From positions 1 through 48,953 of the forward strand of contig JBEKYJ010000002.1 of the NCBI GenBank assembly GCA_049511095.1: a stretch of 48,953 bases of DNA, in the 5' to 3' direction. Under the pieces are notes generated by a model, which ran no database searches, had not been told where the DNA came from, and saw only the letters and a list, made by a program, of their open reading frames with translations. Position numbers and translations under genes: made by a program. This document shows, piece by piece, positions 6,866 to 48,419 of the stretch. Every line of letters begins with the position of its first letter. Position 1 is the first letter of the stretch. The stretch is from Verrucomicrobiia bacterium. Lineage in GTDB: Bacteria > Verrucomicrobiota > Verrucomicrobiia > Palsa-1439.

Positions 6866-7197
6866 CGGCACGCCAATTGATGTTGTAGCCACGCCGCCTG
6901 CTCGCGTGCCGTTTACGGAGCTCTGCCGGCGTGTTCGTCCGCCGTTTGCTTCCGTCCGTGATTGTAGGGCGCGATGCCTGTCGTGTAGGTATCGCGCCGT
7001 TTCGAACCCATCCGTCGCCCCACCATGTAGCCACGGCTTGCCCCGCCTTCCCCCCAACGCTCCAACATTCACCACGTTTTACGTGGCTCCAGCACTCCAA
7101 CACTCCCCCCTGTCTTCTGCCCTTTTTGGCTTCCTTTGTACATAAAACCACCCTCCCGGAGCGGTATTTTGGTACTTTTTTCCCCATTTTTTCCTCT

Positions 7198-7288
7198 TTT
7201 TTGCAAAACGAACCCAACTCTGTTTTTTTCATAACTGTTTCATGTCGCGACACATACGCATTTTTCAGTTGGGTTCGTTTGGTAAAAA
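7198..7288. repeat. 22-bp imperfect inverted repeat (tttttgcaaaacgaacccaact / agttgggttcgtttggtaaaaa) with 47-nt spacer, copy 1
   Basis: Read directly; the same arms and spacer length occur at 28095-28185. Confidence 0.9.
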
Positions 7289-7552
7289 AGTACTTTATAT
7301 AGAGAACTCCCCTGCCAACCGACCCCAAAGATGTAGTAGCGGCCTGCTCGCGTGTTGTGTACGGAGCCGTCTCGGCCGCCCTGCAGACGCGCTTCTGTGA
7401 GCCGAGTCCGGTGCCTGGTGTAGCCACGGCTCTGCGAGCCGTGCTGGGTTCACCGGCAAGTCGTCATAGCGTGGGAAGCCGAGCGGGCGCGAGCGACCGC
7501 AACCGAACCGGCCGTCCAGCCTTCGTAGCCGACGACACGCCCAACCCGTCCT

Positions 7553-7623
7553 TTTTCAAAGAACTGTCAGTCATTATACCCGCCTGGCAACACCGTGTCC
7601 AGCAAAAATATCAATTTTCGATA
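7553..7623 (-). promoter_or_regulatory. sigma70 promoter with upstream palindrome and downstream boxA-like motif, copy 1
   Basis: TGGACA(7601-7596)-17-TATAAT(7578-7573), then GTTCTTTGAAAA (7564-7553). Conserved at 28335-28404. Confidence 0.65.
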
Positions 7624-8289
7624 GCCGAGTCCGACCAGACGCCGCACGCCGTACTCCCGCGGCAATCGCCGCCATCCCCTCCTCGGAGGGGAACAAGGGG
7701 TGGGTGCGCCCGCATTCGTTACCCTCGGTACCTTGTAGCCACGCCGCCTGCTCGCGTGCCGTTTACGGAGCTCTGTCGGCGTGTTTGCCTGCCGTCGTCC
7801 CCCCCCTGTAGCGGCGGTCTACGACCGTCGAGCCTGTTGCAGCCGCGCTCGCCAACCGCGGGCCGTTTCTGATGTAGCGTGGGAAGCCGAGTCCTCGAGA
7901 CGCCGCAACTCCTTTCCCGCGGCAATCCCCAGCCCATCCGGGTAGTCGTTGTAGGGCGGGATGCCTGTCGTTTAGGTATCCCGCCGCTGTCGTTGGCATG
8001 GCGCGCCTGCTCGCGAATCCTTTTCGGGGCCCGACCGCGCACTCCGGCCGACCGAAGGTCTCCTCTGTCGCCGTGCCAACCCTGCCCCGCTACGCCGAGC
8101 AATGAGACGCCGCCCGCCGATTTCCCGACCGCCTCGCACGACTGATTTGCCGAACGCCATGGCGAAGCAGAATCGGCATTGACTGTGCGTGGGGAAACCC
8201 TACCATTGCGTCCGCGATGCGGAACGGAACGCAACGCGGCGACAGATTCGGAGTACGCATGACGGCGGCTGGTGCGCCGCGCCAGCCAA

Positions 8290-8580
8290 CGCTCCAACTC
8301 AAAGGCTGGACGGCGGCCGAGACCACGGCCTTTGTCGCCGCGCGCGGGAATTTCGGCACCGTCGAGCAGGCGCAATCAGCCGCCAAAGGCGGGGCGAAAG
8401 TGACCACCACCGCGAAGAATGCGGACCCCGCCGACCTGCAATGGCCGGCGACCGACCCCGGCAACGCCGGCCTCCGCGACCAATTCCGGCTGAACACCTT
8501 TCCACCCGCCGGTGGCAACAGCGCACCGCCGACCCTGCAGCAATTCGAAGCGTCGTTGTACACCACAACCATCAACCCCA
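8290..8580 (+). pseudogene. Probable C-terminal remnant of an unknown protein gene
   Basis: Frame of ORF 8217-8705 has GC3-rich coding-like codons (LQLKGWTAAETTAF...LYTTTINP) but no convincing start. Confidence 0.35.
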
Positions 8581-8628
8581 AACACTCTCAAATTCGCCGC
8601 TTGATTCACGGCGGGCACTACACCCTTT

Positions 8629-9570
8629 ATGAAAATGCAACACACCAAATTCTTCCTTACTCTTACAGCTATCATCGTCTGCATTTCATTCGTGGGAGGC
8701 TGTAATAAAAAATCATCAGGCGAGTCGACCGCAGTATCGCCTGCAAATTTCAAGCCTGTGGACACATCGCTGTCATCCTTTCAGGTCAAACTTGAGGACA
8801 TTCGACGTACGTACACCCAAGATCTTATCTATACTCGCCCTCAGGAGGCCAAGCCGATTGAACTTCTACAGAAGGGATTGGAGACCAGCCTAAACGTGAC
8901 GACCAATCCAAAGCGCAAAGCATCGATTCTATTGACTCTCGCAACCATGGCGTTCACCCGATCGAGCGCACCCGATGCAACAGTTCAGAGCCGATATTTA
9001 TCTGACGCCATCAAGTACGCCTCGGCGTCTGGCTACGTCGAAGCGGAAGCAGTTGCTCACGGCAAACTTGCGATGGTTTATGAATGCCAGAATAACCTTG
9101 AGGCCGCACGTAACGAGGTGCAGCTAGCGCTTGAGACACATAAGAGATTGAAGATGAATGAAGAGACCGCGATAGACCTGTGCAATTTGGGTGTAATCGA
9201 AGCCAATAACGATAAGGCAAACGAAGCGATGCCACATTTTGAGGAAGCATTGAAGCTCGCGCGCAAATCCAAAAGCGACGTCGCCATCGCCTTTTGCTTA
9301 TGCAACCTTGGAGAATGTTATGCTGACATAAGCGGCTTGAACGGCAACACGCAGCGCCTGAACACGATTGTAGAAGAGCTGCAAAAATACCGTAAACTCA
9401 CAGTTCCGTTTTTTTGTTACTACCGCAAACTCAGCTTCGGCGGGCTGTATTATAAAGCAGTAGGTGGCGACCGCCAATTTTACAACTTTATTCCAAATTG
9501 GAGCCCGCAGAACGGTTCTCCAATTCCGTTGGGATATATTGAGGCGCCGTACGAGCTGCCTTGGCCATAG
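8629..9570 (+). CDS. TPR-repeat lipoprotein, hypothetical (cargo gene)
   Basis: Signal peptide with lipobox VGGC; TPR-like helices (LCNLGVIE...EAMPHFEEALKL, LCNLGECY); visibly more AT-rich than the core genes. Confidence 0.75.
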   Translation: MKMQHTKFFLTLTAIIVCISFVGGCNKKSSGESTAVSPANFKPVDTSLSSFQVKLEDIRRTYTQDLIYTRPQEAKPIELLQKGLETSLNVTTNPKRKASILLTLATMAFTRSSAPDATVQSRYLSDAIKYASASGYVEAEAVAHGKLAMVYECQNNLEAARNEVQLALETHKRLKMNEETAIDLCNLGVIEANNDKANEAMPHFEEALKLARKSKSDVAIAFCLCNLGECYADISGLNGNTQRLNTIVEELQKYRKLTVPFFCYYRKLSFGGLYYKAVGGDRQFYNFIPNWSPQNGSPIPLGYIEAPYELPWP

Positions 9571-9609
9571 AATGCTGTGCCCAATCGGCAGCCAAAAGGT
9601 CTGGGGGAT

Positions 9610-9846
9610 CAACGCTCTACTCTTTACACTTCTCTGAGATCAACTCTCCACCCTGTCCGCCAAGCCGAGTCGGACGGAGCCGAAAGCGGCACTAGCCGTC
9701 TGGAGCCGAGTCCTCGAGACGCCGTCGCGGCAAACGCGCCGAATGTTTGCCGTCGGCGCAAACGCCGCTGTCGTTTGCGGCAACCCTCGGCGACGGCTGG
9801 ACCGTCACAGCCTGCGGCGGTTATGGATAGTGCTATCCATAAAATT
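9610..9846. repeat. Right-hand conserved module, copy 1
   Basis: Identical 30-mer ttacacttctctgagatcaactctccaccc at 9624-9653 and 30116-30145. Palindrome ttatggatag-tg-ctatccataa at 9821-9842, partly retained at 30260-30276. Confidence 0.85.
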
Positions 9847-10025
9847 AGAAGAGTCATTCCTGCACAATCACCTTTTCCCCACTCACTCACCTCAACACAT
9901 TCCCTTTAGCGCAACCCGTAGAGCCTCCAAAATACCTGTTGCTCTGTGCCGCAAGGCTGTGGCACAAACAACATCGGGCCGTCGCACGCACCGGCCACGG
10001 CATCCGAAGGCAGGCGGAGTTGATC

Positions 10026-24981: not shown

Positions 24982-26118
24982 TTACTTTCCCAGCGTGATC
25001 CACCGGCGCGCTTTGGCGGATTTTTCGACAGCGTCGAGCACGATCTGGTTCGCCAAACCGTCTTCGAAGGTCGGTTGCACGGGCTGTTTGTCTACGACCG
25101 CATTAATGAAGTCGGCAACCGTGTGCACGAAGGTGTGCTCGTAGCCGATAATGTGGCCCGGCGGCCACCAGTTGCCGACATAGGGATGCACGCCGCCGCC
25201 TTGCGTGACCAGGATGTCGCGGAACCCACGGCGGTCGGCCGGATCCGCTTCATTGTAGTACTTCAGCCGGTTCATGTCCTCGAAATCAAACACCAGTGAA
25301 CCTTTGCTGCCGTTGATCTCGATCTCGATGCCGTTCTTGCGACCAAGCGCGAAGCGCGTGGCTTCGAGATTGGCCAGCGCCCCGTTCTGAAAACGCCCAA
25401 TAAACATGACCGCGTCATCGACGGTGACTTTGCCTTTCTTGCTCGACTCGCCCGGTAGCGGACGTTCCTTGACGAATGTTTCCATCTGACCGCATACTTC
25501 GCTGAACTCGCCGATAAGGTAGCGACCAAGATCGATGATGTGCGCGTTGATGTCGCCATGCGCACCCGAACCGGAGATCTTGCTCTGCAACCGCCAGACG
25601 AGCGGGAAGTTCGGGTCGACAATCCAGTCCTGCGCGTACCGGGCGCGATAGTGATAGATGGCGCCCAACTCGCCCGCCTCGATCATCTTCTTCGCCAGTA
25701 CGATGGCGGGGATGCGTCGGTAGTTGTGGCAGACCATGTTGACGACCCCGGCTTTCTTCACCGCATCCACCATCTGTCGGGCCTGTTTCACATCGAGCGC
25801 GAGGGGCTTTTCGCACAGGATCGCCTTGCCCGCTTTGGCGGCGGCAATGGCAATCTCGGCGTGCATGTCGTTGGGCGTGTTGATGTCGATGACGTCGATG
25901 GTCGAGTCGTCAACCACCTCACGCCAATCGGTCACGAACTGGTTCCAGCCCCAACGAGTGCAGGCGTTCGTCACGCCCGCCTTTTGTCGGCCACAGATGA
26001 CCTTCAACACGGGCCGGGCTTTGAGGTCGAAGAATTTGTCCGCTTTCAGCCACGCGTTGGAGTGGGCGCGGCCCATGAATTTGTAGCCGATCATCCCGAT
26101 GTTCAGGGTCTTTGGCAT
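24982..26118 (-). CDS. Gfo/Idh/MocA-family oxidoreductase
   Basis: Starts MPKTLNIGMIGYKFMG at 26118; CEKPLA, HNYRR, GDINAHIID. Confidence 0.92.
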   Translation of the reverse strand: MPKTLNIGMIGYKFMGRAHSNAWLKADKFFDLKARPVLKVICGRQKAGVTNACTRWGWNQFVTDWREVVDDSTIDVIDINTPNDMHAEIAIAAAKAGKAILCEKPLALDVKQARQMVDAVKKAGVVNMVCHNYRRIPAIVLAKKMIEAGELGAIYHYRARYAQDWIVDPNFPLVWRLQSKISGSGAHGDINAHIIDLGRYLIGEFSEVCGQMETFVKERPLPGESSKKGKVTVDDAVMFIGRFQNGALANLEATRFALGRKNGIEIEINGSKGSLVFDFEDMNRLKYYNEADPADRRGFRDILVTQGGGVHPYVGNWWPPGHIIGYEHTFVHTVADFINAVVDKQPVQPTFEDGLANQIVLDAVEKSAKARRWITLGK

Positions 26119-26217
26119 AGGCTCGCCTCTCGCCTGCAAAAAAGGTTGAGATTTCGCGCGAAACATTATATTCATTGGCCCAACCCGTTTGTCACGAGAA
26201 AAGAGAGGAATAGGCCC

Positions 26218-27300
26218 ATGAGCATGCCCCATATAAAGTTGTTTATCCCTGGCCCCGTGGAGGTTAGCGATGACACGTTCCAAGCAATGAGCCAGCCCAT
26301 GATTGGGCACCGTGGATCGGGATTCCAAGACCTGTATGCGGCAATTCAGCCCAAGCTGCAAAAAATCCTCTACACGAAGAATCCCGTTTTCATTTCCACG
26401 TCGTCGGCTTGGGGCGTGATGGAAGCATCCGTGCGCAATCTCGTCGCCAAGAAGGTGCTCAACTGTTGCTGCGGGGCGTTCTCCGATAAGTGGTTCGACG
26501 TGAGCCAACGTTGCGGGAAGCAGGCCGAGGCGCTCAAAGTCGAATGGGGTCAACCCATCCTTCCCGAAATGATCGACGCCAAACTGAAGACCGGGCAGTT
26601 CGATGTCGTCACCGTCGTGCACAATGAAACCTCGACGGGCCTGATGAATCCGTTGCCGGAAATCGCCCAGGTGATGAAGAAGTATCCCGATGTGATGTTC
26701 GTCGTCGACACGGTCAGTTCGATGACCGCCCTGAAGATCGACACCGATGCGCTCGGGATCGACGTCATCCTCGCCGGCACGCAGAAAGCCTGGGCGCTGC
26801 CGCCGGGAACCGCCGTGTTCGCCGTGAGCGAGCGCGCTCTGAAGCTGGCCGGGACGATTCCCGGCCGCGGCTACTATTTCGATTTCCTCGAGTTCAAGGC
26901 GAACCACGACAAGAACATGACGCCATCCACACCGAGCATTCCGCACATTTACGGACTCAAGTTCAAGCTCGACCAGTTCGAGAAGGAAGGGCTGGAGAAT
27001 CGCTACGCGCGCCACCTCAAGATGGCACAGAAGACCCGCGAATGGGCCAAATCGCGCGGGTTCGAGTTGTTCCCGAAATCCGGCTACGAATCCGTCACGC
27101 TCACGTGCGTGAAGAACAACAAGAATATCGACGTCGCCAAGTTGCAAAAGACGCTCAAGGACAAATACAAGGTCCTCATCGATGGCGGCTACGGCCCGAT
27201 CAAAGGCAAGAGTTTCCGTCTCGCTCATATGGGCGATGAGACCCTCGACACCGTCTCGCAACTGCACGCGATGCTCGATGATTGCTTGAAGTCGTTGTGA
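26218..27300 (+). CDS. Class V PLP aminotransferase (serine-pyruvate / alanine-glyoxylate type)
   Basis: FIPGPV, HNETSTG, VDTVSS, GTQKAWALPPG, FRLAHMG. Confidence 0.92.
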   Translation: MSMPHIKLFIPGPVEVSDDTFQAMSQPMIGHRGSGFQDLYAAIQPKLQKILYTKNPVFISTSSAWGVMEASVRNLVAKKVLNCCCGAFSDKWFDVSQRCGKQAEALKVEWGQPILPEMIDAKLKTGQFDVVTVVHNETSTGLMNPLPEIAQVMKKYPDVMFVVDTVSSMTALKIDTDALGIDVILAGTQKAWALPPGTAVFAVSERALKLAGTIPGRGYYFDFLEFKANHDKNMTPSTPSIPHIYGLKFKLDQFEKEGLENRYARHLKMAQKTREWAKSRGFELFPKSGYESVTLTCVKNNKNIDVAKLQKTLKDKYKVLIDGGYGPIKGKSFRLAHMGDETLDTVSQLHAMLDDCLKSL

Positions 27301-27809: not shown

Positions 27810-28094
27810 ACTCAGGTCAATGATTTCCAATCTCCAATCTCCAATCCAGTTTTCCCTCCTGCCCTCGTGTAGTAGCGGCTGTCCCAGCCGCCTTGCCTCC
27901 CCGGTGTAGCCACGCCTCTGCGAGGCGTGTCCGCCGCCTGCCTTCCGTCTCGAGGCGTCGCGCCTCCCCCGAATCTTCACCACGTTTTACGTGGCTTTTC
28001 GGGGCTGAATTCCGTCCCCCTTTTGTCTTCATTCCTCCGCAAAACCACCCCTCCCGGCGCTGTTTTCCACCATTTATTCCCTGTTTTTTTCCTC

Positions 28095-28185
28095 TTTTTG
28101 CAAAACGAACCCAACTCGTATTTTTCCCCAACATCTTCATTTCAAAATACTTCCACATTTTTCAGTTGGGTTCGTTTGGTAAAAA
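28095..28185. repeat. 22-bp inverted repeat with 47-nt spacer, copy 2
   Basis: Arms identical to 7198-7288; spacer 28117-28163 is divergent in sequence. Confidence 0.9.
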
Positions 28186-28334: not shown

Positions 28335-28404
28335 ATGTCAAACAACTATCGCCCCTATACCACCGCCGCAACACCGTGTCCAGCACAAATATCGATTCTC
28401 GATA
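28335..28404 (-). promoter_or_regulatory. sigma70-like promoter, boxA-like motif and TATCGA-N3-TCGATA palindrome, copy 2
   Basis: TGGACA(28382-28377)-17-TATAGG(28359-28354), then GTTGTTTGACAT. Confidence 0.55.
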
Positions 28405-29284
28405 ATCAGTCTTTCTTGATTTGTAGGGTAAGCGCCCCGGCCTGCCGTCATTTCCCCGGTAGGGCGCGGTGGCCCACCGCGCCGTGTTCGCCTGCCGTTT
28501 CCCCCTGTTGCCGCGGGCGCTGACCGCGGTCCTCGTCCCTCATGTTGTAGCCACGGCGCTCTGTCGCCGTGCCGAAGTGGTGTAGCCACGGCTCTGCGAG
28601 CCGTGCCGGGTTCGGTGTAACGTGGGCCTGCTCGCGTGTCGTTTACGGAGCTGTCCCCAGCCCATCCGGATCGTCGGTGTAGTAGCGGCCGTCCCTGGCC
28701 GCCTCCGCTCCGTCTCCTCGTCGTTGGCCTGCCCGCGATTCCTAATCGGGGTAGGGCGGGCTGGCTCAGCCCGCCGCTCTGCTTTGTAGGCCGCGTGCCC
28801 TCACGCGGCGTAACCCGTGTCGTCGGTAGGGCGCGGCGGCCCGCCGCACGCGTCGTCCGCTCCGCTCCGCGCTGTCTCCGAATTGTAGGCTCGCCCGCCT
28901 TTGGCGGGACAACGGGACCCGTTGTCGCTGTCGCAGGTACGCGCTCCCGCTCTTGTAGCCACGCCGCCTGCTCGCGTGGTTTACCACGTTCTACGTGGCG
29001 TTTACGGAGCTCTGTCGGCGTGTTCACCTGCCAACCGAGACACAGCTGCGCAGATGGATCGTCTTGGGCTGCACGCGTTGAACTCCGCTACTCGTAGTAA
29101 CCCCGCGGTTCGCCCGCCGCATTTCACCCACACTCTCCAACTGCGCTTCACGCCACGACCAAGAACTACCACTCAAACTGTTTAGCCTGTGTCCTCGCTT
29201 TGGATGATCTGCAAACCTTGCGATTCACTGGCCAGGTTGTTATGCTTGCACGATGTGACAACGCCAGACAATCCGCCCGAGAAC

Positions 29285-29710
29285 ATGCTAAGTCCCAAGA
29301 AAGGCGATAGGCACTTTGATGACCGTGGCAAACGGACTTTCAAGCAGGATATTCTCCTTGCCATTTCCACGGTGGTAATCGCCGGGATCATTTCCTTCGT
29401 CGTTTCCTTTTTTGGGATGATGTACCAACTGCGACAAGCGAGGCAACGCGACATCTACCAAGCCAAAGAGCAAATCTTTAGAGACTTTGTCAAAGCCAGT
29501 GCAAATTGGCGCGAGGCTGTAAAGGAAAAAACTACCCTTAAGCTTAAGTACGATCTAGATCAGTTCTTCGCGGAATTGAACACTATAGTCCCAGCTATCC
29601 TGAGCATCCCCAATTTGCCCCCGAACCTGTCAATAATGCCCTCCAATACACCTACTGTGGCGATCCTTCGCGCGAGGAATCGGGGTCACATCTTTGCATT
29701 TTGCAATTGA
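29285..29710 (+). CDS. Hypothetical single-TM protein (cargo gene), possibly 3'-truncated
   Basis: AT-richer ORF with TM segment ILLAISTVVIAGIISFVVSFFGMM followed by a helical region; start uncertain. Confidence 0.5.
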   Translation: MLSPKKGDRHFDDRGKRTFKQDILLAISTVVIAGIISFVVSFFGMMYQLRQARQRDIYQAKEQIFRDFVKASANWREAVKEKTTLKLKYDLDQFFAELNTIVPAILSIPNLPPNLSIMPSNTPTVAILRARNRGHIFAFCN

Positions 29711-37090: not shown

Positions 37091-39925
37091 CTACGGCGCC
37101 AAACGCACTCGGTAGTAACCGGCCGGGAAATTGGTCACCGCGCCCATGTCGAGATAGTTCCTGAGGCCGCCAACCGCGTCGGTGACAACGAAGATGTCGA
37201 CGAAGTTATTGGAATAACTGCCGCCATTGCCCCCCACAAAGCGCTGTAGGGCGTTGGTTTTGGCTGCAGCCGCCTGCCACGTGACGCGGATGTCGTTGCC
37301 TTCTCTCGTGATCGTCTTGATGTCGGCAACCGGGTTGCTGCCTGCCAGGAATTCCTGCAAATTGCTCATACCATCTCCGTCGGGGTCCTCACTGGCGACG
37401 TTCGGATCAAGTGGATCGAGGCCGTACTGCTGTTTCCATCCATTCGGGATTCCATCGCCGACCGCGCTCAGATTCGGGTCGAGAACGACGCTGCCGACAA
37501 TTAACGTGCCGCCATTGCGAATAAACAGGCCGCAGGCGTTCGTCATCACCAGCCTGTCCACTTGCAGCACACCACCGTTGAGAATCAATTGTCCGTTCCG
37601 CACCTCCAGCACGGCGTCGTGCGTCGCGTTGGTGACGATCACGCTGCCGCTGTTCAATTGAACCAGATTGTCGCAACCGGGTGAGTTATCCCCCAAGGAG
37701 GCTGACGGTTGGCGGGAAACGGATTGAGCCACTTCGACGGAACTGGCCTGCTGAACACCAATGACAACATCTGTGGCGAGAACAGATCCGCCGTCGACGA
37801 CGAGCGAGTTGGCTGATCCCATTTCGCCGATGTGCAGGACATTGTTCCACCATACGGCGCCAGCGCCCACCCACACGCTGTTCTCGCTGCTGCCGGAGTC
37901 GTAGCCCACGTAACCGAAATCGTCGGCTACCTGGCCTCCATCGTCGATCGCCAGGCTGTCGCCCACGCCATACCAGCCGACATAAAGGTCCGCACTGTTG
38001 TTCCACGTTGAGCCCGGCCCCGTCACCACCACGCTATTGTTGTCGGCCCCCCAACCGCCCACGTAAGCATTTCTGTTGACCCCCTGGGCGCCGTTGCTGA
38101 TCACCAAACTGTTCGCCGTGCCATTCCACCCGACGTACACAGCGCCGCTATTGCTCCAGACCGAGCCGGTGTCCGTGACCAGCAGGCTATTGCTGGTGCT
38201 GCCGTCCCACGCGCCGACCCAGATGCCACTGCTGATCAATTCACCGGCGTTATTGATCACCACGCTGTTGCTCCCGCCGCCGTAGCCGATGAACACCATG
38301 CCACCGCTACTGGTCCACACGGAGCCGGGACCGGTGACGAGGACGCGGTTGCCACTGGACTCGCCACCCAGATAATCATAGTAGTCGCCGCCGGGGAAAC
38401 TAAACATTTGGCCGCCATTGCTGATCACCACGCTGTTGCCCCCGCCGTCCCAACCCACAGTCAGGCCCCCGCGATTGCTCCAAACCGAACTCGTGTCGGT
38501 GACCAACACACAGTTGTTGCTGCTGCTGGAACCGCCGCCCATCCTGCCGATGACATCGATCAACTCGCCGCCGTTGCTGATCACCAAACTGTTGCCCGCG
38601 CCAGAACTGCCGATGTCCAGCCAGTAGCCGGCATCCCACACCGAGCCGGGATCGGTAATCAGCACGCTGTTGCCGCTGCTGTTGCCGTCGTCGCCCACAG
38701 TAGCGCCGCCGCTGGCCACCTGCCCGCCCTCGCTGATCACCAAGCCGTTGCCCGCGCCAAGGGAGCCGACGTACAGATTGTTGTTATTGCTCCAGACGGA
38801 ACCGCTTCCCGTGACCAACACGCTGTTGCCGCTGCTGCTGGGGGAGCCGCCGATGAAGCCGGAACTGTCCACCACTTCGCCACCGTTACGGATCACCATC
38901 GTGTTGCCGGCACCAGCATCTTCGTCGTAGCTCCATTCCGAGCCGCCGATAAACAAGTCCCGGTCGCTGCTCCAGAGGGAGTTCGTATCGGCAACCACCA
39001 CGTTGTTGTTGCTGCTGCCGGGGTAGTAACCGACGCTAGCGAAGGTATTGAATACCTGTCCTCCATCGCTGATCACCAGGCTGTTACCCGCGCCAGAACT
39101 GCCGACGTAGATTTCGCCGACGGCGTCGCCGATGGTTGTATAACTCACGACCGACCCCGGGCCGGTGACCAGCACGCTGTTGTTGCTGCTGCTGTCAGAC
39201 CAGCCCCCAATAACGAAGTAAGCCGAACTCATCTTCCCGCCGTTACTGATCACAAGGCTGTTGCCCGCGCCAGAACTGCCGACGTACATGGCGAAGGTGT
39301 TGCTCCATGCCGAACCTGAACCGGTGACCAGTGCGCTGTTGTTGCCGCTGTTGGAGTCCACGCCCAATTCAGAGGAATAGCCGGACACAAAGGCACCATC
39401 GCTGACCACGAGGCTGTTGCGCGAGCCGTCCCAGCCGACAGACACGTCGGAGACGTTCATCCAGACCGAGCCGGGGCCGGTGACCAGCACGCTGTTGTTG
39501 CTGCTGCCGGAGGAATAGCCCAGGTAACCGTCGCCGCTGACAATTTTGCCGCCATCGCCGATCACCAAGCTGTTGCCCGCCCCTAGATTGCCAACGACCA
39601 AATCATTACCGTCGACCGGGATCGAGAGATCGGTGAAATTCTTCCAGACCGAGCCGGGACCGATGACCAAAACGTCGTTGTTACTGCTGCTAACCTCGTA
39701 GCCCACATAGCCGTACCCGTTGGATAGCACGCCGCCGTCAAAAATCAGGAGTACGTCGGCGAACGTGTTGGAGCCGACAAGGTAGTCGCCCGACCAGTTG
39801 CTGGCCACGCCGCTGATGATGTTGGCTTGATAGTCGGCGGTGTACTGCGCCTGGATTGGTTGGGGTCCGAGAACGATTATGGCAAAAATTCCCCCGATTA
39901 GAGAACCGTGCAGCTTGTGATGCAT
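37091..39925 (-). CDS. Large secreted beta-helical repeat protein (T5SS/PEP-CTERM-associated-repeat-like) with DxDxDG tail
   Basis: Signal peptide; more than ten ~43-50 aa repeats (VG..GAGNSLVISNGG...SSNNSVLVTGPGSVW); DPDGDGMSNLQEFLAGSNP; ends YYRVRLAP. Confidence 0.88.
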   Translation of the reverse strand: MHHKLHGSLIGGIFAIIVLGPQPIQAQYTADYQANIISGVASNWSGDYLVGSNTFADVLLIFDGGVLSNGYGYVGYEVSSSNNDVLVIGPGSVWKNFTDLSIPVDGNDLVVGNLGAGNSLVIGDGGKIVSGDGYLGYSSGSSNNSVLVTGPGSVWMNVSDVSVGWDGSRNSLVVSDGAFVSGYSSELGVDSNSGNNSALVTGSGSAWSNTFAMYVGSSGAGNSLVISNGGKMSSAYFVIGGWSDSSSNNSVLVTGPGSVVSYTTIGDAVGEIYVGSSGAGNSLVISDGGQVFNTFASVGYYPGSSNNNVVVADTNSLWSSDRDLFIGGSEWSYDEDAGAGNTMVIRNGGEVVDSSGFIGGSPSSSGNSVLVTGSGSVWSNNNNLYVGSLGAGNGLVISEGGQVASGGATVGDDGNSSGNSVLITDPGSVWDAGYWLDIGSSGAGNSLVISNGGELIDVIGRMGGGSSSSNNCVLVTDTSSVWSNRGGLTVGWDGGGNSVVISNGGQMFSFPGGDYYDYLGGESSGNRVLVTGPGSVWTSSGGMVFIGYGGGSNSVVINNAGELISSGIWVGAWDGSTSNSLLVTDTGSVWSNSGAVYVGWNGTANSLVISNGAQGVNRNAYVGGWGADNNSVVVTGPGSTWNNSADLYVGWYGVGDSLAIDDGGQVADDFGYVGYDSGSSENSVWVGAGAVWWNNVLHIGEMGSANSLVVDGGSVLATDVVIGVQQASSVEVAQSVSRQPSASLGDNSPGCDNLVQLNSGSVIVTNATHDAVLEVRNGQLILNGGVLQVDRLVMTNACGLFIRNGGTLIVGSVVLDPNLSAVGDGIPNGWKQQYGLDPLDPNVASEDPDGDGMSNLQEFLAGSNPVADIKTITREGNDIRVTWQAAAAKTNALQRFVGGNGGSYSNNFVDIFVVTDAVGGLRNYLDMGAVTNFPAGYYRVRLAP

Positions 39926-45910: not shown

Positions 45911-47110
45911 TTAATTGCTTCCACGTTTGTCATTCAACGCGCGGCCCATTTTCTCGACCGCCTCATCCACGTCCGCCCGCGTGATATTCAACGGCGGCAG
46001 AAAGCGCACAACATTCTTTCCCGCCGCGATGCCGATCAATCCGTACTCGGCCAGTTGTAGCACCGCCGGACGCGCCTCCATCGCCACTTCGACGCCGATC
46101 ATCAATCCGATGCCGCGCACCTCGCGAATAGCAGTGCATTTTGCCGTTAATGCCCGCAACTTGCCAATAAAATACTCGCCCACCTCGCGCGCGTTCCGCA
46201 GCAACCCGTCGCGCTCCAGCGCGTCGAGCACCGCCAATGCCACCGAACAAGCCAGCGGCGTGCCGCCAAACGTCGTGCCGTGCGTGCCCGGCCCCAACAC
46301 GTCCGCGTACGGCCCGCGCACCCAGATCGCGGCGATCGGAAAACCGCCGCCGAGTCCCTTCGCCCACGAAATCGCATCGGCCTGAACGTCCGGCGCGATT
46401 GCGCGAAATCCCAGAAACTCTCCTGTCCGTCCCATGCCGCATTGAACCTCGTCAAACATCAGCAACAGATGCCGCTCATCACACAGCCGCCGCAACCCGC
46501 GCAAAAACTCCGGCGTGGCAGGCCGAATCCCGCTCTCGCCCTGGATCGCTTCGAGCAGGACCGCCACCGTCTTCGGCGTGATGGCCTTCGCCACCGCGTC
46601 GAGATCGTTGAACGGCACGTGACGGAAGCCTTCGACGGGCGGCTCGAACCCGTGTTTCACTTTTTCCTGCCCCGTCGCGCTGATGCCCGCCAGCGTCCGA
46701 CCGTGAAAACTATCCTGGAACGTCAAAATCTCGTAGCGTCCTCCATATTCGTTCCCATATTTCCGCGCCACCTTGAACAACGCCTCATTCGCCTCGCCGC
46801 CGCTGTTGCAAAAAAAACATTTGCCCTCGACGCCCACCAACTCGACAAGCCGCTTCGCCAGCCGTCCCTGCGGCTCGGTGTAATACAGGTTCGACGCGTG
46901 CACGAGCACGCTCGCCTGTTTCGCCAGAATCTCCGCCATCGCCGAGTGGCCCAGCAAATTGACCGCGATGCCGCCGCCAAAATCCAGATACTCCTTGCCG
47001 TCCGCGTCCCACACCCGCGCCCCCTTGCCGCGCACAAACACCAGCGGATACCGCGCGTAGCTCGGCACCACGTACCGATCAAACAACCCGACGATTTCGG
47101 AACGGTTCAT
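45911..47110 (-). CDS. argD: Acetylornithine aminotransferase (class III)
   Basis: Starts MNRSEIV at 47110; FFCNSGGEANE, SFHGRT, FDEVQCGMGRTG, AKGLGGG, HGTTFGG; upstream of argF. Confidence 0.93.
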   Translation of the reverse strand: MNRSEIVGLFDRYVVPSYARYPLVFVRGKGARVWDADGKEYLDFGGGIAVNLLGHSAMAEILAKQASVLVHASNLYYTEPQGRLAKRLVELVGVEGKCFFCNSGGEANEALFKVARKYGNEYGGRYEILTFQDSFHGRTLAGISATGQEKVKHGFEPPVEGFRHVPFNDLDAVAKAITPKTVAVLLEAIQGESGIRPATPEFLRGLRRLCDERHLLLMFDEVQCGMGRTGEFLGFRAIAPDVQADAISWAKGLGGGFPIAAIWVRGPYADVLGPGTHGTTFGGTPLACSVALAVLDALERDGLLRNAREVGEYFIGKLRALTAKCTAIREVRGIGLMIGVEVAMEARPAVLQLAEYGLIGIAAGKNVVRFLPPLNITRADVDEAVEKMGRALNDKRGSN

Positions 47111-47450
47111 TTCGCGGTCATCATGCGGAGCGCCGCTTTCCGTTGCAAGGATTTTGCGCGCCAACGCATTCCGCGTCCAATCCGGTGTAGCTTGGGCCCG
47201 CTCGCGAATCCTTTTCGGAGCTGTCACCAGCCCATCCGGGGTGTACCGTGTGAACGCCATCGCCACCCGGTCCCCTCCACCGGAGGGGATTAAGGGGTGG
47301 GTAACGGCGGCGTGGCAAACGAAAGCGGCCCGGTCAGTGGCCCTGTACCATCGCTGGATTTCCCCGGGAAGTTGTAGGCCGCAAGCCGAGTCCTCGAGAC
47401 GCAAGCCCGTCGTGCCGTGCTTGCAACCCTCACGCGGCGTTTATTTGGAG
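47103..47450. repeat. Direct repeat copy 1 (argD promoter plus hairpin modules)
   Basis: Highly similar to 48103-48419; starts exactly 1000 nt earlier. Confidence 0.9.
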
Positions 47451-48102: not shown

Positions 48103-48419
48103 CGGCTCATTGTGCGATCATCATGCGGAGTGCCGCTTTCCGCTGCAAGGATTTTGCGCACCAGCGCATTCCGCGTCCAATCCGGTGTAGCGTGGGCCCG
48201 CTCGCGAATCCTTTTCGGAGCTGTCACCAGCCCATCCGGGCTGTACCGGCGGCCTGCGACCGCCGCGCCATTCGCCTATCTCCCCTCCACCGGAGGGGAT
48301 TAAGGGGTGGGTCACGGCGTCGTGGCAAATGAAAGCGACGCGGTCAGTGGCCCCGTACCACCACTGTTCTTCCTTGGGAAGTTGTAGGCCGCGTGCCCTC
48401 ACGCGGCGATTATTTGGAG
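48103..48419. repeat. Direct repeat copy 2
   Basis: See 47103-47450; a third partial copy of its 3' 46 nt lies at 48019-48064. Confidence 0.9.

Follow-up and report, generated by a model that had tools for sequence, protein, structure and literature searches.

Candidate promoter-bearing repeats resembling miniature transposons, with putative protein-recognition arms, in a genome of the Verrucomicrobiia

Two inverted repeats, each made of two 22-nt arms around a 47-nt spacer, lie 20.9 kb apart in a 48,953-nt stretch of DNA (hereafter, the window) that is contig C2 of a 3.9-Mb Verrucomicrobiia genome assembled in 292 contigs; the metagenomic DNA runs that contain this stretch come from peat and wetland. 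What are these arms, and do they act as DNA or as RNA? The initial annotation had suggested either two protein-binding arms around a crossover or cleavage core, or an RNA stem that presents a variable guide-like loop. From comparison of the sequences we favour, in an evenly balanced judgement, the explanation that the two copies belong to a new family of promoter-bearing repeats resembling MITEs (transposable elements of the miniature inverted-repeat kind), in which the arms are putative protein-recognition sites. The two copies have the following parts.

7198-7219, left arm of copy 1, TTTTTGCAAAACGAACCCAACT, with the core AAACGAACCCAACT at 7206-7219
7220-7266, spacer of copy 1, 47 nt, with conserved T-runs, AAC and TTCAT
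7267-7288, right arm of copy 1, AGTTGGGTTCGTTTGGTAAAAA, with the core AGTTGGGTTCGTTT at 7267-7280
28095-28116, left arm of copy 2, TTTTTGCAAAACGAACCCAACT
28117-28163, spacer of copy 2, 47 nt
28164-28185, right arm of copy 2, AGTTGGGTTCGTTTGGTAAAAA

Re-reading of both loci bore out that the arms at 7198-7288 and 28095-28185 are identical, including the same two mismatches, and that the spacer measures 47 nt in each. The arms of a pair are 91-92% complementary, and the two positions that fail to pair are shared by both copies. In the window we counted the 14-mer core four times where 0.24 would be expected, and none of 100 shuffles reached four. The observation is real and well beyond chance, and the window copies are members of a large repeat family.

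We collected the copies in the whole genome, as the initial annotation had proposed, and obtained 72 arm-spacer-arm units. The spacer is 46 nt long in 38 of them and 47 nt in the other 34; no broader variation of length was seen. Exact arm pairs were also present at 14 loci of another metagenome-assembled genome ('uncultured Verrucomicrobiae bacterium') in a scan of one genome per species, and the spacers there measure 47 nt in 11 loci and 45, 46 and 48 nt in one each. The fixed spacer length therefore stands as a description, with 46-47 nt in 72 of 72 units, but the neighbouring stretch from a C-rich box to the left arm is equally steady (44-47 nt in most units, varying by only ~1-2 nt). We attribute the steady length to the fact that the whole core has few insertions and deletions, and not to a special constraint on the spacer. 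The supposedly free centre of the spacer was not borne out, as several columns (the T-run, AAC, TTCAT and CATTTTTC) are conserved over the 72 copies. The median pairwise identity of the spacers is 0.68, and 50 of the 72 are chained by single linkage at a threshold of at least 80%. Going by these sequences, the two window spacers are diverged lineages of one family.

These data bear directly on the proposal that the locus is an invertible switch or recombination site with its crossover in the spacer, or a loop that presents a guide. Inverted arms around a short segment, with a promoter nearby, are what such a device would look like; nevertheless, we find it hardly credible. When the central 32 nt of every spacer were compared with the host genome, 408 matches fell within the family and none outside it; together with the conserved columns this gives a variable guide no support. 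The spacer is flipped relative to its asymmetric flanks in 0 of the 72 units, and the promoter lies outside the arms. The differences from the sister species (G004) are found not within the spacer, where the initial annotation had proposed to look for breakpoints of synteny, but outside the unit on its promoter side, past the promoter module; a crossover or cleavage core is thus not borne out. In two DNA runs no strand change was seen at the arms among 15 listed of 30 joints, which is weak as a test of inversion since the joints are taken from contigs and contigs drop rare variants. Separately, we considered integron attC sites. Their core sites sit at the outer ends of an imperfect palindrome, in cassette arrays beside an integrase. 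The motif ACCCAAC/GTTGGGT fits the attC core, but it occupies the inner arm ends, and the units are scattered one by one; this candidate was rejected with no search aimed at an integrase.

The copies resemble each other well outside the arms, over a stretch of about -150 to +450 counted from the left arm, with pairwise identities of 66-95%. The arms are internal to a unit of 200-500 nt and are not its termini. Described on the pyrimidine-rich strand, which is the plus strand in the window, the unit has a degenerate half-site first, then a C-rich box and a T-rich stretch, then the two arms with the 46/47-nt spacer between them, and after these a conserved tail. In most units a promoter module follows 100-400 nt beyond the tail. 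The parts found around the two window copies are listed below.

7128-7137, third, degenerate half-site of copy 1, GGCTTCCTTT (family consensus tttGGcTTCGTTT)
7144-7159, C-rich box of copy 1, AAAACCACCCTCCCGG, reading CCGGGAGGGTGGTTTT on the minus strand, conserved in the family
7289-7321, conserved tail past the right arm of copy 1, family consensus GGTAAAAACAC.CTTTTtTAGAAAG..CCCCtgCCAAC
7573-7601, minus strand, sigma-70-like promoter of copy 1, TGGACA-17-TATAAT, which agrees with the consensus at 11 of 12 positions in a scan
7609-7623, palindrome of copy 1, TATCAATTTTCGATA (TATCG-N5-CGATA in the family), immediately upstream of the -35 hexamer
28041-28057, C-rich box of copy 2, AAAACCACCCCTCCCGG
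28354-28382, minus strand, promoter-like site of copy 2, TGGACA-17-TATAGG, identified by eye; it fails the stricter pattern T[TCG]GAC[AG]-N17-TAnnnT
28390-28404, palindrome of copy 2, TATCGATTCTCGATA

The left arm core follows the third half-site at a distance of ~80-93 nt, and further matches to the motif occur at that offset in other units. The C-rich box is equally regular: CCGGGAGGG was found with at most two mismatches in 62 of the 72 units, mostly 44-47 nt from the left arm. An alternative right half carrying tandem TTGGAAG repeats is present in 19 of the 72 units, which hold 21 of the 27 such repeats in the genome. A conserved open reading frame (ORF) was not found in the units. Frames past a Shine-Dalgarno-like box, GGGAGGG, are short and run into unrelated DNA, and the position after this box is occupied by ATG, TTG, ACG or other triplets, so that a start codon is not kept. 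Across the whole window Rfam 15 gave no match at the gathering threshold, and no tRNA or tmRNA was found; the segment 7000-7750 gave only sub-threshold, meaningless matches to eukaryotic microRNA and long non-coding RNA models. We also recorded two other features of the units. One unit, on contig C108 (13452-13700), is split within its spacer by an insertion whose ORF begins like an IS3-family transposase (MKRKRFSEEQII...), an assignment made by eye with no family search. A small perfect hairpin, CCACGTTTTACGTGG, lies to the left of both window units (7070-7089 and 27969-27989), at 28980-29005 and also within other repeats.

The promoter module is the most strongly oriented part of the unit. 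A module ending in GTCCAGCAAAAATATCGATTTTCGATA was found in 51 of the 72 units at +190 to +520, always on one strand; GTCCAGCAAAAATATCGATTTTCGATA itself occurs 40 times in the genome at up to five mismatches, and at up to seven it takes the expected position in 39 units. The promoter of copy 1 points leftwards into the arms, towards ileS; that of copy 2 has a weaker -10 hexamer, the last base being G. The stricter pattern was matched on the arm-ward strand in 32 of the 72 units, with a 17-nt spacer in all of them, and on the opposite strand in two, where ~1.5 would be expected from the genome-wide rate. In 30 of the 32 matches the TATCG-N5-CGATA palindrome is located at most 40 nt upstream. 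The distance from the -10 hexamer to the arms has a median of 188 nt, and insertions of 100-300 nt are tolerated between the two. Of 20 units fetched from a further genome of the genus, G011, 15 are preceded by the same arrangement, and a promoter was recognised by eye upstream of ileS in G000, G004, G011 and G005, as well as at loci of G003, G010, G001 and G008. Two runs recorded as RNA, covering a small share of the stretch, yielded contigs that span the ileS start codon and reach 6923; these contigs give no exact cover of the arms or of the promoter module. The predicted promoter would make the unit a portable transcription module.

Three other signals were tried and rejected. An intrinsic terminator flagged by a scan at the C-rich box (minus strand, 7165-7147) has its stem in one subfamily only. 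A sigma-54 reading of the motif, made by eye against the consensus, leaves the GG-GC spacing one base short, and a reading as a promoter of the extracytoplasmic-function type, made in the same way, gives no -35/-10 pair at the right distance.

Besides the promoter, there is evidence of mobility. Some units are the interior of miniature transposons with 15-18-bp terminal inverted repeats (GGTACTGGTACAGTTT) and 8-9-bp target duplications. In the sister species G004, a 630-nt insertion containing a unit has the ends GGTACTGGTACAGTTTGG and ..AAACTGTACCAGTACC and the duplicated 8-bp target CGGACGGC, and contig C213 of the present genome holds the corresponding uninterrupted empty site. Of the 19 G004 units examined, this was the only one with a clean empty site. 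A compact copy of 424 nt has the same ends with a 9-bp duplication, CTGCTTRCC, and a 4.1-kb copy has an 8-bp duplication, AAGAAGTG, and a nested element of the IS1595 family. The nested element (3.3 kb, L069:1105-4480 of G004) is bounded by perfect 24-bp inverted repeats, GGAATTATATACAATGTTACCCTA, and carries an apparently split IS1595-family (ISXO2-like) transposase gene and a gene for an SDH/ClpP-like protease. The termini, where present, lie at 110-370 nt on the left side and at 320-690 nt on the right, and their sequence differs from that of the arms. The family shares several properties with MITEs: the units are small, multi-copy and non-coding, and three target duplications and one empty site could be read. 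A second presence/absence case, a unit at C68:1914 that is absent from G004, was set aside for its unclean boundaries; neither a terminal repeat nor a duplication could be read there.

How far does the motif extend beyond this genome? The exact 14-mer occurs 100 times here, 60 times in G004, twice in G011 and in none of 58 other relatives. The 11-mer core TGGGTTCGTTT, on the other hand, is present 21-246 times per genome in all 13 sampled genomes of the genus, where controls gave 0-3, and 0-9 times in 27 genomes of 14 other genera of the family. The arrangement varies. In all 20 units fetched from G011 an upstream copy is followed, after 76 nt, by a two-copy palindrome whose members are 3-5 nt (mostly 4) apart; the motif arrangement in G005 and G003 resembles this. 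At loci of G008, G010, G014 and G001 the motif forms direct repeats that lack a complement. Four species were examined at ileS, and each has a unit of this family type upstream of that gene; both arms at the G011 ileS locus carry a GGCTTC/GAAGCC variant. It is the motif, and not the element ends, that the whole genus keeps, whereas its spacing and orientation differ between species.

Are the arms kept as sequence or as a helix? We scored the 14 core pairs of 92 units (this genome and contig C17 of G004) and observed 76 one-sided changes that break a pair. Double changes were compensated in four cases and uncompensated in three. Changes leaving a wobble pair were divided 26 to 22 by strand, the 22 being on the transcribed strand. 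As pairing is not restored after its loss and the wobble changes have no strand bias, the arms appear to be kept as sequence and not as helix. Between the two species, the arms of orthologous units share an identity of 0.84-0.86 and the remainder of the unit 0.70-0.72; overall, these units are 0.59-0.87 identical, compared to ~0.91-0.92 for the flanking genes. In 8 of 12 comparisons a unit resembled its best paralogue more than its orthologue, which points to gene conversion or replacement at the same site. The earlier suggestion of two protein-binding arms fits with half-sites kept as sequence, with the direct repeats in four species and with the slower evolution of the arms, and it remains the best reading of them. 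We infer that perfectly inverted founders were amplified and that the resident copies are held mainly by sequence-specific recognition. The arms would then be double-stranded DNA recognition sites for a putative protein, either a transposition or maintenance factor of the element or a host factor.

The spacer may also play a part. Sites for IHF have the consensus WATCAR-N4-TTR with an upstream A-tract. In 30 of the 72 spacers a relaxed form of this consensus, WAT[C/G]AR-N4-TTR, was found, always at the same position, where shuffles give 0.9 of 72, and the spacer centre, flanked by A/T-tracts, may help to bend the DNA.

The main rival to the protein-site explanation is a function at the RNA level, in which the promoter transcribes the arms into a hairpin of 14-22 bp with a 47-nt loop. 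This hairpin might serve in processing, stabilisation or attenuation, or the unit might be a small-RNA gene, as in Correia elements and Coxiella QMITE1. In units of the G011 type the middle arm could pair with either the upstream or the adjacent downstream arm, and would form an attenuator-like switch. Promoter-bearing MITEs and MITE-derived small RNAs provide precedents (PMC5896051; PMC10969869), and in 44 of 68 units the promoter points the same way as the gene beyond the arms. The substitution data argue against this alternative (76 one-sided against 4 compensated changes, with no excess of wobbles on the transcribed strand, 22 vs 26), as do the four species with only direct repeats at their loci, where the hairpin is impossible. 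No consensus structure was found for the segment beyond the arms (alignment fold 0.0), the window has no Rfam match, the region between promoter and arms tolerates insertions, and the transcription itself is predicted. We therefore consider the RNA function possible but doubtful.

Several observations weigh against the explanation that we prefer, namely MITE-like units with protein-recognition arms, and the first of these are the ones that speak for a hairpin. The promoter reads into the arms, so that its firing would yield an RNA hairpin. At -31 kcal/mol (z = -5.5 vs shuffles) the fold is strong, as for any inverted repeat. The bases past the 11-mer vary by lineage yet stay complementary between the arms: they are AACT/AGTT here, and ACC/GGT in 18 and ATT/AAT in 2 of the 20 G011 units, to which the GGCTTC/GAAGCC variant at ileS may be added. 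Such lineage-specific complementary extensions are the outcome that a requirement for a hairpin would give. On the protein side, no binding protein was identified for the arms, and the C of the strict IHF consensus is present in 0 of the 72 spacers. On the side of mobility, only ~12 of the 72 units have a recognisable terminal repeat within -600/+1300 nt (the left one, at up to one mismatch, in six; the right one, at up to three, in eight; both in two). The window copies are without recognisable ends, their best matches having 4-7 mismatches in 15. The membership of most copies in a transposon is thus deduced from the interior sequence that they share.

An autonomous parent with the same ends and a transposase was not found in 18 genomes of the genus either. 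Counts of the terminal repeat are 18 in G004, 9 in this genome and 0-5 in the 16 other genomes of the genus. Among the pairs in G004, three on contig C17 flank units, and the members of the others are 600, 600, 867 and 4080 nt apart. Over the 18 genomes the matches form short pairs only, apart from the 4.1-kb pair and one of 11.6 kb in G001, which encloses ordinary genes and no parent element. A scan of metagenomes with a 16-nt terminal repeat gave 121 loci, which are chance matches, the motif being present in 0 of the 121; among the 80 loci listed, 5 have two matches and the rest one.

The genomic context of the units allows a further alternative to be weighed. On one 698-kb contig of G004, 19 units were compared, and 12 of them, including both window loci, have a counterpart at the same place in this genome. 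Most of the compared units are thus same-placed in two species whose genes differ by ~8-9%. The window units lie upstream of ileS and beside a GFO/IDH/MocA-type gene (24982-27267). In the 24 of 68 units in which the gene beyond the arms is not co-directional with the promoter, it ends at the unit edge in convergent orientation; these strands come from a home-made, imperfect gene caller (a fourth-order periodic Markov model). A shared family of neighbours was not found, as an all-against-all BLASTP comparison of flanking ORFs matched only ORFs that overlap the repeat. In other species the neighbours are unrelated, e.g. an Mrr nuclease, a phosphodiesterase, a GATase and an S49 peptidase.

These positions raise the possibility that the motif copies are an array of operators through which a global regulator of the host controls the adjacent genes, and that the units are not selfish DNA. 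The genus-wide enrichment of the motif, the unit upstream of ileS in four species, the 12 of 19 shared places and the purifying selection on the arms are in line with this. We hold it to be clearly unlikely. The 200-500 nt around the sites are homologous among copies, which is not expected of independent operators; the absence of a common neighbour family and the convergent far-side genes do not suit control of adjacent genes, and neither the insertion polymorphism with target duplications nor the closeness of paralogues fits with it.

The two sides of the units also differ in composition. The mean GC content is ~0.61 on the arm side and ~0.57 on the promoter side from +700 nt outward. At two places 2.6-2.9 kb of extra, lower-GC DNA follows the promoter module here, where G004 has 41-313 nt; in the ileS intergenic region, for instance, this part measures ~2.6 kb here vs ~313 nt in G004. 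It holds a TPR-repeat gene of low GC content (0.48-0.52) at 8629-9570, which, like its surroundings (7626-9923), is absent from that intergenic region of G004. At copy 2, the right flank in G004 maps to another contig of this genome, and ~1 kb to the right of the copy we noted an ORF (29189-29710; 173 amino acids, GC content 0.47-0.49) with no Pfam match. Two other features of the window were recorded. A 944-amino-acid ORF (37091-39925, minus strand) consists of ~11 diverged tandem repeats of ~156 nt (52 amino acids); it has a weak, sub-threshold match to TSP3_bac and may encode a repetitive surface protein. The segments 47103-47404 and 48103-48398 are 87-93% identical and 1000-1010 nt apart, which suggests a local duplication of ~1 kb, and they contain the repeat GGCCCGCTCGCGAATCCTTTTCGGAGCTGTC.

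Much of the DNA to the right of the units is occupied by hairpins of a different kind. Arrays of GC-rich hairpins with a (T)GTAG head, of several types (e.g. GTAGCCACGGCTCTGCGAGCCGTG and GTAGTAGCGGCCGTCCC), fill the non-coding DNA beside both units.

6883-6945, 7333-7385, 7416-7451, 7733-7795, 28546-28613, 28953-29034 and others, GTAG hairpin arrays

The hairpins have the head of repetitive extragenic palindromic (REP) sequences, and this leads to the question whether the arms are inverted REPs mobilised by a Y1 transposase of the REP-associated tyrosine transposase (RAYT) type. REPINs are REP doublets, and the BIME-1/RIP elements of Escherichia coli carry an IHF site between two REPs. The picture in our units is superficially the same: a spacer of lower conservation lies between conserved inverted sequences whose distance is nearly fixed, intergenic copies number in the tens to hundreds, and the sequence is specific to a lineage. 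The genome has seven matches to the Y1 transposase family, three of them within 3 kb of a unit, and GTAG hairpins crowd the neighbouring DNA. However, the arm AAACGAACCCAACT has neither a GTAG head nor an internal palindrome, and the conservation reaches far past the arms. Three of the seven Y1 loci were examined, and these are flanked by GTAG hairpins or by unrelated terminal repeats. On contig C21 a RAYT gene stands beside a unit and is flanked by GTAGTAGCGGCCGTCCC hairpins, not by arms; at L028 and L029 (contigs C248 and C165) the Y1 genes are flanked by 33-46-nt terminal inverted repeats, CAATTGCAAAATGCAAAGATGTGACCCC..., with no GTAG hairpins. Y1 transposases are not known to make terminal inverted repeats or target duplications, and the resolved insertions have both, the duplications being of 8-9 bp. 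A REPIN-like doublet is accordingly very unlikely; the GTAG hairpins and the RAYT gene on C21 are an ordinary REP/REPtron system, distinct from the arms.

A published study (PMC3733652) reports GTAG repeats in Verrucomicrobia and describes a REP unit as 20-40 nt long and itself a palindrome with a GTAG-type head; our units share with the REP-RAYT system that they lie in mosaics with such hairpins, one of them beside a REPtron, and the L028 and L029 loci resemble its 'TIRtron' arrangement.

What would a family of this kind mean? It would join the few bacterial miniature transposons with promoters and recognition sites, in Verrucomicrobiota, a phylum little studied, and it is unusual in that the conserved part is an internal triad of motifs, kept genus-wide with spacing and orientation reshuffled, and not the ends. 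As two-thirds of the compared units are same-placed and ileS has a unit in four species, the family may show mobile DNA supplying promoters and control sites to housekeeping genes. A more specific proposal, which we put forward tentatively and think rather unlikely, is that the motif is the address of a putative genus-specific nucleic-acid-binding protein, and that the units are a mobile, protein-gated module of transcription or attenuation at 40-120 loci per genome. At each locus a conserved promoter would transcribe across two or three copies of the motif, whose arrangement was re-wired from species to species. If so, the host would keep the units at fixed places such as ileS and they are not mere selfish DNA, and the alternative pairings of the G011 type would amount to a transposon-borne riboregulatory switch. 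The units and the GTAG arrays are also markers of sites at which insertions of low-GC genes set the two species apart, and they probably contribute to the fragmentation of the assembly.

Finally, we compared the units with known systems. A thin literature search for Verrucomicrobia together with 'miniature inverted-repeat', limited to titles and the beginnings of abstracts, showed no such element described. The Correia elements (CREE/NEMIS) of Neisseria are similar in kind (PMC2649163; PMC2229807; PMC10969869): they are dispersed, small and non-coding, with inverted repeats that enclose a core able to bind a bending protein; they have sigma-70-like promoters, affect or are co-read with their neighbours, and occupy both conserved and polymorphic places. 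An IHF site, promoters and processing by RNase III are on record for them. In contrast, their inverted repeats terminate an element of 100-155 bp, whereas the arms here are internal to a longer unit that has, in addition, a third copy of the arm motif and, where the ends are present, separate termini with an 8-9-bp target duplication. No resemblance of sequence between the two was apparent by eye, with no search made, and IHF binding in our units is only suggested by the consensus at one mismatch. QMITE1 of Coxiella burnetii (PMC5896051) consists of MITEs of 300-400 bp in ~50 copies with sigma-70 promoters, like the units described here; it shows transcriptional activity at several loci, keeps its positions from strain to strain and is a source of small RNAs. 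It differs in having direct repeats of 2-3 nt and in often overlapping ORFs, whereas the present units are intergenic, with 8-9-bp duplications where these can be resolved, a triad of motifs and predicted transcription.

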